A stretch of 63,828 bases of DNA, counting the filler, from Rhabdomonas costata (taxonomy: Eukaryota), in the NCBI GenBank assembly GCA_019059605.1. It is 52 parts of 52 records of this genome, joined end to end, with 100 filler letters (N's around TTAATTAATTAA, not from the genome) between each part and the next. Parts side by side here need not be neighbours in the genome. Positions count along the whole stretch, not along the records: positions 22,145 to 23,273 come from JAHMHO010027140.1; 51 more parts are not named here. One strand, written 5' to 3'. Position 1 is the stretch's first letter, and every line of letters begins with the position of its first letter. Shown here in pieces: positions 20,744 through 62,699 of the stretch. Made by a program: the position numbers and the translations under genes. Under the pieces are notes generated by a model. That model had not been told where the DNA came from. It saw nothing but the letters and a program-made list of their open reading frames with translations, and searched no databases.

Positions 20744-21040
20744 AGAAATACAGGTGGGAATCCCGAGAGTGCGTCCAGGATGACAACCCCGGTCCTCCGG
20801 TTCCCCAAACCCCCCNNNNNNNNNNNNNNNNNNNNNNNNNNNNNNNNNNNNNNNNNNNNTTAATTAATTAANNNNNNNNNNNNNNNNNNNNNNNNNNNNN
20901 NNNNNNNNNNNNNNNTGTGTGGTGGATTAGGTGCCCCATCCACATGGAATCGGGTGGTACCATGAAAGAAGAATTGAAGAAGCTTTCTCTTGCCGTTGGT
21001 GAGTGGCACGTTTTTCTGATATAGTCCGGGTTTTTTTCAG

Positions 21041-22042
<1,002 letters not shown>

Positions 22043-22145
22043 ACNNNNNNNNNNNNNNNNNNNNNNNNNNNNNNNNNNNNNNNNNNNNTTAATTAATTAA
22101 NNNNNNNNNNNNNNNNNNNNNNNNNNNNNNNNNNNNNNNNNNNNG

Positions 22146-23144
22146 GTTGTGGTGAACTCCAAAGCAGAGGTTCTGGTGGTGCAGGAGAAGCAGTACGGGA
22201 AGCACTGGAAACTTCCCGGGGGGCTGGTGGAACCCGGGGAGGACCTGGCTAGGGCCGCGGTGCGGGAGGTCTTCGAGGAGACAGGGGTGAGGTGCCGGTT
22301 CCTCGGCCTCCTGGCAGTGCGGGAGAAGCATTTGGAGTGCATGTTTGGAAATCGCATCGGAGCTTCGCACATCGCCATATAAGTATTCCTATGGCTGAAA
22401 CCATTTTGAGGACTTTCGTTTTGGGGGTACCCCTTGTTTTCTTCATGCGACATTTCCAAGGTAGCTGGTAACGTAAAGGACGAGGGATTAATTTTTTGGA
22501 AGTGGTTTTGCACTTCCTGCTTCCCATCCTGTTCGTGGCATATTTATTGTGCAAAAGAAAGCTTGGACACAGCTTCACGCTCCTCTGCTCGACTGTTGTA
22601 TTCGTAAAAATTTCACCGCGTTGATAACTGCACATAAATGCACCCAAAAATGGATGTGCTACCGTCACCGTTTCGAATAGTAGGTGGCCTCCCGTTCGTC
22701 CTCGGGCTGCCTTCCACTGATATTCAATACGTCGCTGGTGTGCGCACTCCCGCTGCGTTTCCCGTGCCCGAGCAGCACGGCTACCTGTGGGGGCGCGATG
22801 ACCTCTACTTTGTCGCCCACCTGGAGCCCACCTCGGACGCAGAGCAAATCACGATGTGCGAGACTGAGCTCGCTGCTTGCCAATGGATGCCCCTTGAGGC
22901 CTACCTCAGCAGTGACAAGATCAACCCCATCTCCAGGCACATCGCGGCATGTGCCAAGGCTGCCGTGGCCGGAGCCTCGGCCTCTGTGGAGGTGTGCGGG
23001 GTGCAGATTCAGTACGCCCCCGCCACGGACAAGTACCACACCTTCTTCAGCCACTTGAATGGTCCCGCTCAAACGGTGCTCTCGGGGCTGTCGCTGGATT
23101 CGGCACAAAAGCCAGTCTACAAGCCCTACGAGGCTACTCTGTGA
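22146..23144 (+). CDS. Nudix hydrolase, NUDT6-like; last two exons separated by a ~447-nt non-canonical intron
   Basis: VLVVQEK...[28 protein letters not shown] (Nudix box), resuming at [13 protein letters not shown]...[13 protein letters not shown]. Stop TGA at 23142-23144. Confidence 0.93.
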
Positions 23145-23605
23145 AATTGTTTTAAGTTTTGAGGAGGGTGTGTTCATGGTGCTGCTGGTCGAATAGTGCA
23201 TGCATGCATCCACAGCTTGTCCTGTTCTTGTCTATCTATAAGACAGGATAGGCACCCCCACCCCAACCAAAGANNNNNNNNNNNNNNNNNNNNNNNNNNN
23301 NNNNNNNNNNNNNNNNNTTAATTAATTAANNNNNNNNNNNNNNNNNNNNNNNNNNNNNNNNNNNNNNNNNNNNCTAGAATGTCTTCTAACATACAGAAGG
23401 CATATGAAAGGAGTATCCTTGCTGGGAGGACAAAGCACAGGAACAGCAAAGCACCTGGCGCACACGGAGGTTGAGGTTCCATTTGCTCTCAGTCTTCGAC
23501 AGAGTGATCTCTGTGTTTTGCTTTGTGTGCCCGCCTCCATCCATCGCAGTGGTCTCTTCCCTTCCGGCGCCCAAGTCTATGTGGTGCTTTCGTTTTTTGT
23601 TTGTG

Positions 23606-23636
23606 TTGGGTTGGGGTTAGGGTTAGTGGTTAGGGT
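23606..23636 (+). repeat. short degenerate TTAGGG-like interstitial tract
   Basis: ttggg ttgggg ttaggg ttagtgg ttaggg. Confidence 0.55.
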
Positions 23637-24065
23637 GTATTGGAAACGGAAATACAGACGGCCTTGGCCGGTTTCTTACCTTGCCCATTTCTGTCACGGT
23701 TAATTCGTTTTAATAATACAGGGAGAAAGGAACACACAAACTGACAACTGTATTTTGGACGCTCGTAAAAAGATACGGGATGCAGCATGCAGTTCCAGCC
23801 GCGTGCAGGGACAGGGGCGGGGTTGATTGAACGGAGTGATTTCACGGGGTCATTATCATTTGCGGCAGAATGCGTAGAAGCTCGGTCCGTAGAAGGCAGC
23901 CATGCACCTCAATTTCGAAAATTCCCTATTTCAGGCAGCCCTATGTCATGTTCTTGAAACTGCGTTTCTACGCTTCTGCGGCCAAAGAACAACACAAGAT
24001 GCAAGAGAACTACACAGGCAGAGGATGGCAGCGGCGAGAAGAGGATTCATGGAAAAGGACCACAC

Positions 24066-58616: not shown

Positions 58617-61600
58617 CTGCACAAGGGAAAACCGCACGTGCCACAGTCCACAACAAAGCGAACTCACTGGAGAATCACAGGATGGAACCTGAGGTGTGCT
58701 GGGCCACCCAGGCTCAGCAGCTAACCTCGAGCGTTGCCCCAGCGTGGTTTAGCATTCAATCCCAAGACTTTGGGGCTGTCAGCACTTCGAGCTTATCCCG
58801 TTGAGAGCCCGGCCCGGATCGCCCGGATGACACGCGTCTGTCCATCTGGACATCAGACCCGCTGTGGGAGTTTCCTTCATGGACAACTTAAACACTGAAG
58901 GGGAAACGTACCNNNNNNNNNNNNNNNNNNNNNNNNNNNNNNNNNNNNNNNNNNNNTTAATTAATTAANNNNNNNNNNNNNNNNNNNNNNNNNNNNNNNN
59001 NNNNNNNNNNNNGTGTTTAGGCTCCCTGCCGACCGTGACACCCAATGGTCGCAACTTCCAAGGCACCATGACGCACCATTGAGCAGCACCCATGCCGGAG
59101 AGTACCAACACTCCATTGTAACCAGCATCCAAGCTCACGACTCAGGTCCTGTTGACCTTGTGCTTTTTGTTATCTTTCTTTTGTGAGTTTCTCGCAGCAA
59201 CCCTAAAAGACTGCAATACAGCGAGGACACAGGGATGCAAGGAGCGGAGTCGTAGCGCAAGGTATTTTGCAACTGTTCAAGCTTTTGCAGAGATGCGTGC
59301 ACTTCATTTGGTCTCTCAGATCCTGCACCTGTGGTGTCGCAGTTTCTAAAATCGTTGCGTGTTCGTGTTGGAACCTCTTGCTGCAAGTGCTGTTGAGGTA
59401 AAAAACCTCACCTGTACCCGCGGAATGCATTGGTGCACACCACGCCGCACGGCTGCACTCCTGCTGTTTCCACGAAGCAGGTATGTTGACGATGATTGAC
59501 TACAGCAACCCTAACTTTCCTCACGCTAATATTTTTCGGGATTCTCCCAAATCAGGCAAAAAGAAGAAGAAATTGTTTAATCCAGTTGAGAAAAAACACA
59601 TCACCTAAAAACCAAAGATTTATAAATGAGTACCATCTGAAGGCTTGCCCAGAGCAAGGACCTCTTCAACTCTCGGGTGTGGCATCTGTACAATCTACAA
59701 GCCGCTCGTATCTTTGAATTTCCGACAATGTGGGAAGGTTTGATTATATACTATTTTGGATGGTTTCGATATATTTTTATTATTAAAAATTATTGGAATA
59801 AATAGTTTAATTATATTTGTGTATTATGATTTCCCATAATATTTTGATACCTTGTTTCTTGTCCGCAGTTGCCCTGGACTGCCTCGGCTACTTGGCTAAT
59901 TCGCATCTGTGGGTCCCCATTTCGCAGCTGTATTGTTTAAGTAAACGATTTTACGGAAACAACGGATTTTAAGTAAAGTTAAGTATACAAACGCATTTTT
60001 GAAACAATACTATTAAAAGCATTCCGGAAATTCAGGAGCAAAAGGGCATATTCAACTGGCACTCCGGACTGGAACCATTCTTTGACCTTGTGAGTAATGG
60101 ACTCAGTCGCTCCGGCTTTGCCCACACCGAGTTTGCCCATANNNNNNNNNNNNNNNNNNNNNNNNNNNNNNNNNNNNNNNNNNNNTTAATTAATTAANNN
60201 NNNNNNNNNNNNNNNNNNNNNNNNNNNNNNNNNNNNNNNNNTTGTTTGTTACGCATTTGTTTGACGGGTAACAATTGCGGTGATTATGATTTTATCTCGT
60301 GGTTTCGGTGTAAGGCCGATAGCGAGGCTGGGTATCTGAACAAACGCCTCCATAGGTTTCATAGATCTAATAGGTTCCAATTTTGATCTAGAATGTCTTC
60401 TGTCCCTCTGTCGGGATCCTCTCCTCAAATCTTTCGGCCATACCATTGAGAGCCCCCCAGAGTCGACGCCGGAATTATTGATTGAAAGTGGCAAATAATA
60501 ATGACGAGACTTTCTGGTACGAGGGTTCTTTTTGACCCTAACTCACAGTCCTCCCTCTGAAAGTCCTTCTTGCACCATGACCTTCCCTTGCCCCTTTCCG
60601 TCAGGCTCACTTCCACAATCAGCAGCACTTTCTGCACTGCTTCACAGTAGCAGTGCGGTAGCAGAGGCAACATCTCGCTTATCAGCCGCTGAAGAAAGCC
60701 GTCTCTTTCACAGACTTCGAACACATAGCTGCTCCAGCCTCCCGGCCTCTCAGCCCACTCGGAAGCCACCGTTCCCAGGCTGCCAGTTGGACTGGCCGAG
60801 GGTGTTCCCCTGGGGGGCACGCATGACACCAGTGCTGTCGTGACCCGCACAGCACGCATTCCTCCGCTTCCCCCGTGGCAGCCCTCGCCACCGCCAGGAA
60901 AGTAATAGGAGAGGAAAAACACAAAGCAAGGGAAAAGGCACAAAAAGTCGCAGTAGTAGTATGTTGAGTATGAAAGCGGGGAAACAGTTTTGTGGGCTGT
61001 TTACGGGTTTGTTCAAAATGGAGTTGATATAAAAAACTTTATTTTTGTCTGCCGCACATTTTGATGCGGAAATATGTGAAACCAATGGAACAATTGCTAT
61101 TCTTGTCTCTCGGTGTATCCATGCAACACTCCGTCACACAAGTAAAAAATCACTCAAATAAGGCAAAAAAATGAAAAAAAAAATGAACCAAGTGTTTTCT
61201 CGCACTCAGATATTGCAAGTGGCCTAATCAAAAGGTAGGAATTCATAGGAGTCGTTTCTTTTTATGGATCCAAAAATGAGTGGTGGAGCTTTGTGGACTA
61301 CGAAAATGGTCCAGGAGATGAAAAAGTCAGAAAGTTCACAAAGTTTTGAGGAAAAGTTTCCGGGTGTCTGNNNNNNNNNNNNNNNNNNNNNNNNNNNNNN
61401 NNNNNNNNNNNNNNTTAATTAATTAANNNNNNNNNNNNNNNNNNNNNNNNNNNNNNNNNNNNNNNNNNNNTTGTGGGTGTGCTACTTTCAACGTTGGCCT
61501 AGTTTTTGCTGAACCAAAGAAAAGAATGCTACGATGCTGAAATACACAGCGGGAGTGAGCAGTGCCAGCACCACTGCCATTGACGGCCTTTGCACGAACA

Positions 61601-62699
61601 ATAAAATGCAGGCATGTTTCCGTTTTCCACCCACCGTATCCATATTTCTCCGAGCGCGAATGCTGAACACACAGGTGAAGTCCAAGAAGCTTGAAGATGT
61701 GCAGAGTAGTGGAGCCATACCCTGCGGCCAAGAATCCCAGTTCTCCAGCTCCCCAGAAGGACAACCTAAGCAAGACAACAAGACAACGGCGGAGTGGGCG
61801 GGAAACGAGAATCCACGATCCATGCAATAGTGCCCGCGTCGGACCATGCTCGGTTTGTCTCCAACTCCGCATCCACTCTATTGCGAGGCTTTCGCTCACT
61901 CCCGCTGTGTATTTCAGCATCGTAGCATTCTTTTCTTTGGTTCAGCAAAAACTAGGCCAACGTTGAAAGTAGCACACTCACTCATCACACCAGGCAAATA
62001 ACGCCACCACGGGAACCATGAACAGCATCATCCCAATTTCTGCGCATTGGAGACAGAGAAAGCCAAGACAAAAAGCGAAATCGAAAAAGGTGGAATAGGA
62101 GGCCTTGAAGAGGTTTAGAGGGCCAGTGGAGATGTTTCCATGACGTGTTGGGTCTCGAGATCCTGTATTTGCCCTGGAATATTTAACGGATACCACGGGT
62201 GCCGGGTACCCACACACACAGCCACTAATTTTCAAGACCCGACGAGAGAGATGAGAGAAATAAAACCAGCCGTTGTGCAGAGTTAATATGCGCAAGCAAG
62301 TGGCGCATGCTCGACAATGCTCAGCGATCAAACAAGACCAAGACAAAAACGAGCATCCCTTTGATGTTACATTCGATCACCACGCGGTCATTCATCGCGC
62401 ACAGCTTTGGCAGAAGAATATTTGCAAGTGAGAGACGACAGAAAAAGGACCAAACAGTGTCACTCGGTAAAGGTGTTTTTTCTGGAGGGAAAACTTCGGA
62501 AAGTTAAGCTTAGGGGGCAAAACGGCAGTAATTGGGTGGGAATTTCGAGCACGCCACGCACCCACAGGAAGGTGAAGCCTGCCCTTGACCCCCCACCCCN
62601 NNNNNNNNNNNNNNNNNNNNNNNNNNNNNNNNNNNNNNNNNNNTTAATTAATTAANNNNNNNNNNNNNNNNNNNNNNNNNNNNNNNNNNNNNNNNNNNN

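Follow-up and report, generated by a model that had tools for sequence, protein, structure and literature searches.

The window, a stretch of 63,828 nucleotides of DNA, carries a gene for a Nudix hydrolase whose coding sequence is interrupted by several hundred bases with no canonical intron ends. Which bases leave the transcript of this gene, and what marks them for removal? The window consists of 52 contigs, each ~1.13 kb, linked by N/TTAATTAATTAA, and the interrupted locus lies entirely within a single contig (22145-23273). Judged by protein sequence identity, the source of the locus is probably Rhabdomonas costata or a very close relative.

The host gene and its transcript-derived protein

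The interrupted gene encodes a NUDT6-like Nudix hydrolase (match to PDB entry 3h95_A [NUDT6]; E=4e-14). The translation of exon 1 contains the Nudix box sequence REVFEETG, and both exons are open, with neither a stop codon nor a frameshift in their translations. The GC content of the intron is 0.48, compared with 0.65 and 0.61 for the two exons. The parts of the gene are as follows.

22146-22329, + strand: exon 1 (upstream, a fragment), holding the Nudix box; best-fit end, with the true end between 22326 and 22331
22777-23144, + strand: exon 2 (downstream), from translation and open reading frame; ends at the stop codon 23142-23144
22380-22382, + strand: stop codon that is in frame if the intron is retained, from translation and open reading frame

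Evidence for splicing comes from RCo007841 (eukprot; P0003), a 295-aa protein from the R. costata transcriptome that carries the Pfam domains Nudix_hydro PF18290 (E=8.6e-23) and NUDIX PF00293 (E=2.8e-24). According to the partial text of PMC8219788, RCo identifiers denote R. costata proteins; these were predicted from the transcriptome, and the genome was left without gene prediction. Residues 114 to 174 of RCo007841 are identical to the translation of 22149-22331 at 61/61 positions (100% for exon 1), and the translation of exon 2 is 98% identical to the protein. After G175, tblastn of RCo007841 returned a single mismatch, a Thr codon at 23073-23075 where the protein has Ala. The second difference between protein and contig is Phe/Val at the first codon, 22146-22148. 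Because the two differ at one or two residues, the transcript may derive from another allele or copy.

RCo007841 lacks the 447 nt and reads REKH across the gap between exon 1 and exon 2. In the homologue search, it was the sole relative above 52% identity among the matches listed (best 120 of 302). A search for isoforms with residues 125-225, in a database clustered at 90% identity, gave 84 matches, none of them from R. costata; the best covered >80% of the region at 50% identity. We infer the splice from this one transcriptome-derived protein, whose transcript we tentatively assign, by sequence, to the locus in contig 22145-23273. Our preferred explanation, which we hold to be fairly likely, is that the NUDT6-like Nudix gene of R. 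costata or a very close relative is interrupted by a nonconventional (non-GT-AG) intron of 447 nt, and that removal of this intron restores REKH.

Placement of the junctions

The RCo007841 sequence was restored by exactly six equivalent 447-nt removals (start 22327-22332, end 22773-22778). Their ends are AG-GC, GC-CA, CA-AG, AT-GC, TT-CA and TT-AC, none of which is canonical. All six placements give one protein, and five of them give an identical mRNA; the exact intron ends are unreadable from the mRNA because the cut lies within the short direct repeat AGCA. None of the 38 canonical in-frame, stop-free removals (GT/GC-AG or AT-AC) reproduced RCo007841. This agrees with the initial annotation, made from the DNA sequence, in which a removal of 447 nt was needed and no canonical pair could achieve it. 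One of the boundaries proposed there, 22329-22775 (CA-AG, giving REKH), is among the six placements. The favored boundary, 22320-22766 (AVPEQH), and a further one, 22322-22768 (REQH), are both contradicted by the REKH of RCo007841.

The published junction consensus of euglenid nonconventional introns is pyrimidine/purine, the slash marking the junction here and below (PMC6221363, PMC11282704 and PMC4770533, each in partial text). Of the six placements, the following is the best fitting to the junction preferences given in the available parts of PMC6221363 and PMC4770533.

22330-22776, + strand: intron, best-fit placement, 447 nt; AT..GC ends, with exon 2 beginning with A

This placement has pyrimidine/purine (C/A) at both the 5' and the 3' junction, and U-G-G at +4..+6 can pair with C-C-G at -9..-7. 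Exon 2 then has G as its third base, versus the C preferred in PMC4770533 (partial text). C-D-G at +4..+6 occurs in 0/6 of the transcript-compatible placements.

Removal of the 447 nt joins GAGAAGCA to CGGC and restores the conserved R-E-K-H-G-Y-L-W-G. The spliced product keeps R171, which is invariant in 120/120 homologues listed, and H174, found in 114/120. Its 9-residue R..G spacing is the same as that of P0004 (REKHNYSFG), the nearest relative among the matches listed. The spacing R-x-x-H-x-x-x-[FW]-G, from which the 447-nt removal had first been deduced as a family trait, held for 45/120 homologues listed, including the nearest, and failed for 75, which have two extra residues. Bases 22317-22331 encode V-R-E-K-H in frame, as in RCo007841, and REKH is also present in P0004; these bases are therefore ancestral coding sequence and not intron. 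A non-canonical intron in the Nudix gene is most likely real.

A direct repeat at the junctions

A short direct repeat lies at the two junctions.

22323-22330, + strand: direct repeat, upstream copy GAGAAGCA; resembles a target site duplication (TSD); extended form 22315-22330
22770-22777, + strand: direct repeat, downstream copy GAGCAGCA; extended form 22762-22777

The imperfect end repeat had been noticed before, and its copies are identical at 7/8 positions, with AGCA shared exactly. The extended copies are identical at 12/16 positions, a level that 0/635 other 16-mer pairs at offset 447 in the contig reached. The a/c difference between 22326 and 22773 decides between REKH and REQH. The element plus one repeat copy adds up to the length removed (439 + 8 = 447 nt). 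Eight-nucleotide repeats also flank the recently gained nonconventional intron in gapC of Euglena agilis (PMC4770533, partial text), and by analogy the 8-nt repeat at the Nudix intron is suggestive of a recent gain.

A long-range stem spans the 5' junction

The stem proposed between 22317-22340 and 22744-22767 was confirmed in the pair map, with 21/24 positions paired (17 Watson-Crick and 4 G-U pairs). Its parts are as follows.

22317-22340, + strand: stem 5' arm; 10-15 nt of exon 1 (codons V-R-E-K-H) plus the first intron bases
22744-22767, + strand: stem 3' arm; pyrimidine-rich, within the intron, stopping 6-11 nt before the 3' junction
22334-22340, + strand: inner helix GGAGTGC; 7 Watson-Crick pairs with 22744-22750

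Three positions are mismatched: a22327xg22757, t22331xc22753 and t22333xc22751. A 3x3 internal loop (22331-22333 / 22751-22753) parts the outer helix, 22317-22330 x 22754-22767, from the inner one. It is at this loop that the 5' junction is located, 10-15 nt inside the 5' arm, and 6-11 nt separate the end of the 3' arm from the 3' junction. Of the final 30 bases of the intron, 20 are C or T, and this tract coincides with the 3' arm.

The stem was found in both the minimum free energy (MFE) and the centroid folds of 22297-22797 (+ strand). It is rare in shuffled sequence: ungapped helices with at least 21/24 pairs arose in 3/3000 dinucleotide shuffles of the 3' segment, and in 3/1327 same-geometry segment pairs from other contigs. 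The exon part of the stem, 22317-22330, is paired at 13/14 positions, which was equalled in 22/5000 shuffles. The duplex energy of -37.5 kcal/mol was equalled in 90/2000 shuffles and is less unusual than the pair count, since one arm is rich in G and the other in C. The suggestion to fold the intron against shuffled controls brought nothing out for the intron as a whole, whose MFE was unremarkable on the + strand (z = -0.78, with 20/100 shuffles folding as well); on the - strand, z was -1.94. According to these folding predictions, the terminal stem alone stands out structurally, not the intron body.

An alternative helix whose base would lie 3 nt into the intron at its 5' end and 5-6 nt short of the 3' junction was rejected on inspection, consisting of just the 3-bp U-G-G/C-C-G. 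A terminal test of 10+U7+10 gave -2.1 to -5.1 kcal/mol over the six placements; these values come partly from the artificial linker and were therefore given no weight. The stem, the repeat, a junction that is non-canonical relative to the transcriptome-derived protein, and an intron-like base composition are established at this locus.

The Euglena splicing code predicts a different cut

In Euglena, the code for splicing nonconventional introns has been genetically defined as N3-CDG...CH'G-N5-6/R (Nomura et al. 2025, PMC12501133). The usual nonconventional pairing is of +4,+5,+6 with -8,-7,-6, mostly as CAG/CTG. Every single substitution tested in CAG or CTG abolished paramylon formation in Euglena, and CGG paired with CCG is a working variant of the code (PMC12501133). 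The Nudix locus contains a unit of this kind.

22317-22769, + strand: alternative excision unit, 453 nt; GTG-CGG ... CCG-TGCCC/G, in frame, at the base of the stem

This unit fits every element of the Euglena code (N3, CGG:CCG, a spacer of 5 nt and an exon that begins with a purine). In a grid of 60 motif pairs, donor 22317 with end 22769 or 22770 (5- or 6-nt spacer) had the longest helix run, at 7 pairs, and the remaining motif pairs had runs of <=6. The cut would, however, delete the Arg that is invariant in 120/120 homologues listed, and it disagrees with RCo007841. Given the sequence of RCo007841, the intron is cut ~10 bases from the site predicted by the stem and the Euglena rule. If the site is unused, the perfect fit of 22317-22769, at the stem base, to the code would be an uncomfortable coincidence. 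The code is also missing from ~39% of E. agilis nonconventional introns (PMC12501133), so it is not strictly required for class membership. A euglenid-style conventional pair, 22317-22775 (GTGCG...C-rich tract...CAG), is likewise in frame.

Alternative explanations

The match between RCo007841 and the contig could also have arisen from two gene copies. Under this explanation, which we consider unlikely, the transcript came from an insertion-free allele or paralogue, and the copy in the window either (a) carries a nonconventional intron cut at 22317/22770 (453 nt), (b) is spliced by the spliceosome between GT at 22317 and AG at 22775 or 22772, or (c) is unspliced and inactive, with an insertion and its 8-bp duplication. 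The one or two residues at which protein and contig differ are in keeping with it, as is the documented strain-specific presence and absence of nonconventional introns (PMC4770533, partial text). Milanowski 2014 likewise did not rule out that an active intron-less copy coexists with an inactive copy bearing introns or insertion elements. Form (a) satisfies the whole Euglena code with a 24-bp helix and in frame. Form (b) has in its favor a C-rich tract and CAG at the 3' end and the resemblance of GTGCG to GTGTG, the conventional 5' motif of Euglena gracilis that pairs with Euglena U1. The products of both (a) and (b), however, lose R171, invariant among the 120 homologues listed. Bases 22317-22331 encode V-R-E-K-H just as RCo007841 has it and are hence ancestral coding sequence. 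The sum of 439 and 8 nt is what form (c), a simple insertion into intact REKH-coding sequence, predicts. Against this form, the exons are intact, without stop or frameshift, and the 13/14 pairing between intron and exon (22/5000 shuffles) needs selection at the RNA level, which an inert insertion leaves unexplained.

The spliceosome could instead have used a non-canonical donor at the REKH junction itself, either as CA-AG (22329-22775, among the six transcript-compatible placements) or as GC-AG if the assembly dropped a G at 22328 (AAG/GCATTT). The 3' end does look like a euglenid conventional acceptor (20/30 C/T, then CAG), and the R. costata draft DNA was amplified before sequencing (PMC8219788, partial text), making errors conceivable if the window comes from such data. 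Yet in the given sequence neither a GT nor a GC donor is present at any compatible position, the 5' bases CATTTGG are, by eye, unlike the GTGTG motif, and the collapse of a 2-base G run would be an unusual short-read assembly error. We regard this explanation as highly unlikely. An intron at the stem base (22320-22766 or 22322-22768, with +4:-6 and +5:-7 pairing) seems barely plausible. The part of the original geometry that stood is its length of 447 nt and its pairs g22323-c22761 and a22324-t22760, whereas its purine/pyrimidine junctions reverse the published preference. AVPEQH would also replace the invariant Arg, and either product departs from the REKH of RCo007841; the stem-base intron would be viable only if the expressed allele has A, not C, at the equivalent of 22773. 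Just as hard to credit is an assembly or amplification artefact, namely a chimeric insertion that includes an inverted copy. Elsewhere in the window, a contig does open with an 88-nt, 99% inverted repeat (61473-61560 / 61894-61981) that has the typical look of an amplification chimera. The arms of the Nudix stem, on the other hand, are imperfect (17/24 Watson-Crick plus 4 G-U), the 447 nt are unique within the window, and the insert, bordered by a direct repeat, falls precisely where one coding part of the gene gives way to the next.

Several other candidates were rejected. Ire1/HAC1-type splicing has a consensus that suggests G/C cuts; at this locus such cuts lead to REQH, and no bulge-helix-bulge of the tRNA type was formed. 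For a group I or group II self-splicing intron, no Rfam core match was found within the intron: cmscan of the contig, with E up to 10, returned two unrelated weak matches, both outside the intron. The notion of an introner-like insertion drew no support from the search for further copies, since blastn-short of 22300-22800 found no second copy of the arms or body in the other 51 contigs (~58 kb, and therefore weak evidence), the best foreign match being a chance one of 15 nt.

Proposed mechanism and its implications

For the 447-nt nonconventional intron that we prefer, we propose that the pyrimidine-rich 3' end of the intron would pair, in the pre-mRNA, with a stretch made up of the final 10-15 nt of exon 1 and the opening ~10 nt of the intron. 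The 5' junction would thereby come to lie at the small internal loop that divides a 14-bp from a 7-bp helix, and the distance from exon 1 to the 3' junction would be held to 6-11 nt. The helix may in this way let the euglenid nonconventional pathway find and join both sites. The stem would thus be used in splicing, and excision would presumably be non-spliceosomal and yield a circle.

A more far-reaching proposal, which we think improbable, is that Rhabdomonas sets its nonconventional splice sites by another rule than Euglena. The 3' arm would act as a guide via the last 10-15 nt of exon 1, with the 5' cut at the internal loop and the 3' cut in single-stranded RNA ~10 nt past the helix, and the code-perfect 22317/22770 would be ignored. 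If this is true, recognition of nonconventional introns would be exon dependent, and the code would be lineage specific and not universal in euglenids.

For the removal of euglenid nonconventional introns, a sequence code has been genetically defined only in Euglena (PMC12501133). Primary heterotrophs like Rhabdomonas have barely been sampled, the published candidates being seven, with one example named in the partial text of PMC8219788. At the Nudix locus, one stem leads to two predictions: the Euglena code points to 22317/22770, and the sole transcript evidence points to a cut ten bases further in. If the REKH junction is the true one, the Euglena rule does not carry over to Rhabdomonas, and exon pairing is a candidate for what determines the site. 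If the code-compliant cut is true, the published protein comes from an intron-less second allele, and the locus records a newly gained intron that is polymorphic, present in one allele and absent from another. The scope of either outcome is modest, as a single locus is concerned.

Comparison with known systems

Assignment to the euglenid nonconventional introns had been suggested from the start, and an intron of this kind with non-GT-AG ends, a terminal stem and a TSD-like repeat is the best-supported reading; the specific geometry suggested with it is not supported, as the junctions lie off the stem base and C-D-G at +4..+6 is absent. The nonconventional introns of Euglena (E. gracilis and E. 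agilis) share with the Nudix intron a euglenid host (diplonemids can also host the class), the lack of GT/GC-AG or AT-AC ends, a long-range stem of near-end inverted repeats, a junction direct repeat that makes the intron "slidable," and a GC content below that of the exons. Pyrimidine/purine is possible at both junctions here as well (22330-22776). The Nudix junctions differ in offering at best U-G-G:C-C-G with a 6-nt spacer in place of the usual motif. In addition, the helix begins 10-15 nt upstream, in exon 1, as opposed to 3 nt into the intron, and its end is separated from the 3' junction by 6-11 nt. In Euglena, nonconventional introns keep splicing after transplantation, and any nucleotide can serve as the last base of the donor exon (PMC12501133), whereas the outer helix of the Nudix intron is built mostly from exon bases.

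The review in PMC11282704, as far as its partial text goes, describes nonconventional introns as lacking a polypyrimidine tract and as being excised after the conventional ones, non-spliceosomally and as full-length circular RNA. Against this description, the Nudix intron ends in a C/T-rich stretch (20/30), which is at the same time the 3' arm of its stem. Another trait of the class is that it lacks complementarity to U1; in the Nudix intron, the 5' bases CATTTGG look, by eye, unlike the U1-pairing motif GTGTG. The intermediate (I/N and C/I) euglenid introns also combine a GT start (here 22317) and a CAG end (22775) with a stable stem, but the canonical-looking pair of the Nudix gene is not backed by RCo007841.

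Closest in origin are the putative nonconventional introns of R. costata (Soukal et al. 2021, PMC8219788, partial text), with which the Nudix intron shares the organism (by protein identity), detection by comparing transcript with contig, and a stem-loop. In that study, Exonerate predicted 1164 introns with non-canonical boundaries, 105 contigs retained read support for such boundaries, and seven were kept on manual inspection; the example named in the available text is NODE_718 / TR27401. With read support in 105 contigs against 1164 predicted introns, mapping of transcripts to contigs alone often misleads.

An eight-nucleotide direct repeat at the junctions is shared with gapC intron 4 of E. 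agilis ACOI 323 (Milanowski 2016, PMC4770533, partial text), where its authors took it as the sign that the intron was recently gained, through an insertion or the repair of a double-strand break. The gapC intron is described as showing all nonconventional features, whereas the Nudix repeat matches at 7/8 positions and the CAG/CTG register is unmet at the junction used. Introns derived from introners or miniature transposons (MITEs) in Micromonas, dinoflagellates and Fritillaria (PMC11282704, partial text) resemble the Nudix intron in their TSD-like repeat, their inverted repeats and the coding sequence restored here by removal of 439 + 8 nt. They differ in forming copy families, of which none was seen within ~58 kb, and in the position of the inverted repeat, which in the Nudix gene is not terminal to the insert. 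The stem arms are not element termini, most of the 5' arm being coding sequence of ancestral origin.

A parallel to the proposed exon pairing is offered by self-splicing introns. In group I (P1/IGS) and group II (EBS-IBS) introns, an intron segment base-pairs with the end of the upstream exon. As with these exon-binding guides, the 5' splice site of the Nudix intron would lie within or beside a helix of intron and 5' exon. The Nudix intron is not a member of either group, having no Rfam match and residing in a nuclear protein-coding gene. It is probable that it adds to the euglenid nonconventional intron class, with an atypical geometry.

Host gene and transcript-derived protein

The window is a chain of 52 contigs of 1124 to 1139 nt, apparently ordered by length, separated by linkers in which N-runs flank TTAATTAATTAA, giving stops in all six frames (e.g., 22045-22144 and 23274-23373). 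Adjacent contigs are unrelated, and features crossing linkers are meaningless. By eye, one contig (23374-24503) has an internal, degenerate TTAGGG-like run, gggttggggttagggttagtggttagggtg, at about 23605-23645 that is telomere-like. The Nudix locus lies entirely inside contig 22145-23273, where two coding parts of one gene share a reading frame:

22146-22331, + strand, first coding part (translation VVVNSK...LLAVREKH)
22761-23144, + strand, second coding part (translation closed by a stop codon)

Reading on past 22331 in frame leads to a stop codon at 22380-22382. The first part aligns with human NUDT6 (PDB 3h95_A, E = 4e-14) as far as ...SIRQQHTN, and the second aligns with the same protein starting at the Y of GYLWG. 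Within exon 1, 22173-22192 (CTGGTGGTGCAGGAGAAGCA, encoding LVVQEK) and 22311-22330 (CTGGCAGTGCGGGAGAAGCA, encoding LAVREK) form a direct repeat identical at 17 of 20 positions.

When the exon 2 translation was used as a query (longer proteins only), the single match was P0003 (EukProt RCo007841), a protein of 295 aa with 98% identity and with Nudix_hydro and NUDIX domains (Pfam). RCo identifiers denote Rhabdomonas costata proteins. The cited sections of the genome report describe 39,456 proteins predicted from the transcriptome and a genome without gene prediction (PMC8219788), so P0003 serves as a proxy for the spliced mRNA. It is identical to the translation of 22149-22331 (61/61 residues) and has one mismatch to exon 2 (Ala in P0003; Thr codon 23073-23075 in the contig). 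At 22146-22148, the contig's first full codon, Val replaces the Phe of P0003, possibly reflecting an error at the contig end or the edge of an intron. Taken as sequence differences, Val/Phe and Thr/Ala hint at allelic or copy variation.

Excision junctions

We enumerated all removals starting in 22290-22385 and ending in 22640-22799. Exactly six reproduce P0003, each of 447 nt, with starts at 22327-22332 and ends AG-GC, GC-CA, CA-AG, AT-GC, TT-CA, and TT-AC. Since both ends carry AGCA, five of these placements give the same mRNA, and the remaining one differs at a synonymous base only. None of the 38 enumerated GT-AG, GC-AG, or AT-AC removals with an open frame yields P0003. The non-GT-AG removal of 447 nt proposed in the initial annotation is thus upheld, as is its REKH option (e.g., CA-AG at 22329-22775), which is among the six. 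Its preferred boundary, 22320-22766, yields AVPEQH and its option 22322-22768 yields REQH; both are contradicted by the REKH of P0003.

Among the matches listed, the Arg of REKH (R171) is present in 120/120 homologues and H174 in 114/120. The stretch from this Arg to the Gly spans 9 residues in 45/120, including P0003 and its nearest relative, P0004 (REKHNYSFG), and 11 residues, the vertebrate type, in the other 75. The "family spacing" by which the gap was first delimited therefore applies to part of the family only, though to the relevant part. The locus offers in-frame excisions of 447, 453, and 459 nt, and as judged from the sequences only that of 447 nt fits both P0003 and conservation, though it is the least rule-conforming. 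A euglenid-style conventional pair, 22317-22775 (GTGCG, C-rich tract, CAG), is also in frame and would give LLA|HGYLWG.

Terminal stem

The predicted stem between 22317-22340 (5' arm) and 22744-22767 (3' arm) is borne out by the pair map, with 21 of 24 positions paired (four of them G-U), and is present in both the minimum free energy and centroid folds of 22297-22797. When the 3' segment was dinucleotide-shuffled, an equally good ungapped helix arose 3 times in 3000, and such a helix was seen in 3/1327 same-geometry segment pairs from the other contigs. The duplex energy (-37.5 kcal/mol, reached by 90/2000 shuffles) is less telling than the pairing, because a G-rich arm opposes a C-rich arm. 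In the fold-versus-shuffle comparison, the whole intron is not unusually structured (z = -0.78). On the - strand a weaker stem still forms, the four G-U pairs becoming C-A mismatches. A second 5' segment of the intron, 22347-22371, is 72% complementary over 25 nt to 22739-22763 in the same 3' arm and can, on sequence, form a weaker alternative helix that rivals the main stem.

The junctions do not lie at the stem base, where they had initially been placed. In the six placements, 10 to 15 nt of the 5' arm belong to exon 1 (codons V-R-E-K-H), and the 3' junction falls 6 to 11 nt beyond the end of the 3' arm. The 5' junction is located at a 3x3 internal loop (22331-22333/22751-22753) that separates a 14-bp outer helix (13 pairs) from a 7-bp inner helix (GGAGTGC/GCACTCC). 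The exon portion alone is paired at 13 of 14 positions, a value reached by 22/5000 shuffles. REKH also occurs in the nearest relative, so these codons are ancestral coding sequence; given the exon 1 repeat, the stretch of exon pairing with the 3' arm has a near-copy 138 nt upstream.

Origin and alternative explanations

The imperfect direct repeat noticed at the two ends is confirmed: GAGAAGCA/GAGCAGCA match at 7 of 8 positions, extending to 12 of 16. An element of 439 nt plus one repeat copy makes up the 447 nt removed, exactly as expected if the element had entered a previously uninterrupted REKH-coding sequence. In the cited part of PMC4770533, a strain-specific, recently gained nonconventional intron in E. 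agilis gapC has eight-nucleotide junction repeats, which its authors take to indicate insertion or the repair of a double-strand break. The suggested search for further copies of the arms or body found none in the other 51 contigs (~58 kb, a weak test). As for the TIR-derived insertion originally offered as an alternative, most of one arm was already coding sequence in the ancestor, which means that the two arms cannot both be transposon termini. The ability of the 3' arm to pair with the exon must then have been shaped, or favoured by selection. Elsewhere, contig 61471-62599 carries an 88-nt inverted repeat (61473-61560/61894-61981; 99% complementary; arms 333 nt apart) that begins 2 nt from the contig end; this is a MITE-like or foldback element, or else an inverted chimera produced by whole-genome amplification.

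The locus probably contains a genuine R. costata nonconventional intron, 447 nt being removed within the AGCA repeat and the stem incorporating the end of exon 1. The initial annotation had recognized this kind of object, and its sequence facts were also right; its boundary and geometry were wrong. The main competing explanation, rather unlikely, is that the expressed mRNA comes from an intron-less allele, with the window copy cut elsewhere or not at all. P0003 may derive from another allele or copy, given one clear residue difference from the contig and another at the contig's first codon, and in the passages cited, Milanowski 2014 cannot exclude that an active copy lacking the intron coexists with an inactive one that carries introns or insertions; against a cut elsewhere, removal of 453 nt would lose the Arg found in all 120 listed homologues. 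The imperfect arms, together with an insert that has no second copy in the window, make an amplification chimera unlikely. Rfam gave no match to a self-splicing intron family.

Comparison with euglenid introns

Nonconventional introns are already known as a class, of which the Nudix intron is probably a new example. In the cited portions of PMC6221363, PMC11282704, and PMC4770533, they have variable non-canonical ends joined by a stem, pairing of +4 to +6 with -8 to -6 (mostly CAG/CTG), a pyrimidine|purine step at each junction, TSD-like direct repeats, and excision as full-length circles. For R. costata, the sections cited of PMC8219788 report 1164 introns with non-canonical boundaries predicted by Exonerate, with read support kept in only 105 contigs.

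The DEAD-box helicase gene fragment (VLDEAD) at 21355-21997 (contig 20916-22044) is too short to clear the Pfam cut-off (DEAD, E = 4.7e-4). Its 379-nt segment 21438-21816 looks, by eye, like a conventional intron: it opens with GTGTGTG, the 5' motif of conventional E. gracilis introns, closes with CAG, and provides a useful contrast with the Nudix intron. Two more GT-AG introns appear upstream, at about 20999-21040 and 21116-21354 (by eye only).

Nomura et al. 2025 (PMC12501133, in the parts cited) genetically defined in Euglena a code, 5'-N3-CDG...CH'G-N5-6|R, in which CGG-CCG variants function and the donor spacer is strictly 3 nt; 61.2% of the nonconventional introns in E. agilis conform to it. 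At +4 to +6, C-D-G is absent from all six transcript-compatible placements. The best-fitting one, 22330-22776, has C|A at both junctions, with exon 2 beginning with A, and its U-G-G can pair with C-C-G at -9 to -7. The code is matched exactly by 22317-22769 (GTG-CGG...CCG-TGCCC|G), a 453-nt in-frame segment at the base of the 24-bp stem, and of the 60 motif pairs scanned, a 7-pair run occurs only with the 22317 donor (ends 22769 or 22770). This cut would delete the invariant Arg and disagrees with P0003. With the P0003-compatible junctions, the Nudix intron differs from the classical nonconventional geometry in that its stem takes in the end of exon 1, and the one unusual point of this locus is that the Euglena code and the P0003-supported junction disagree.
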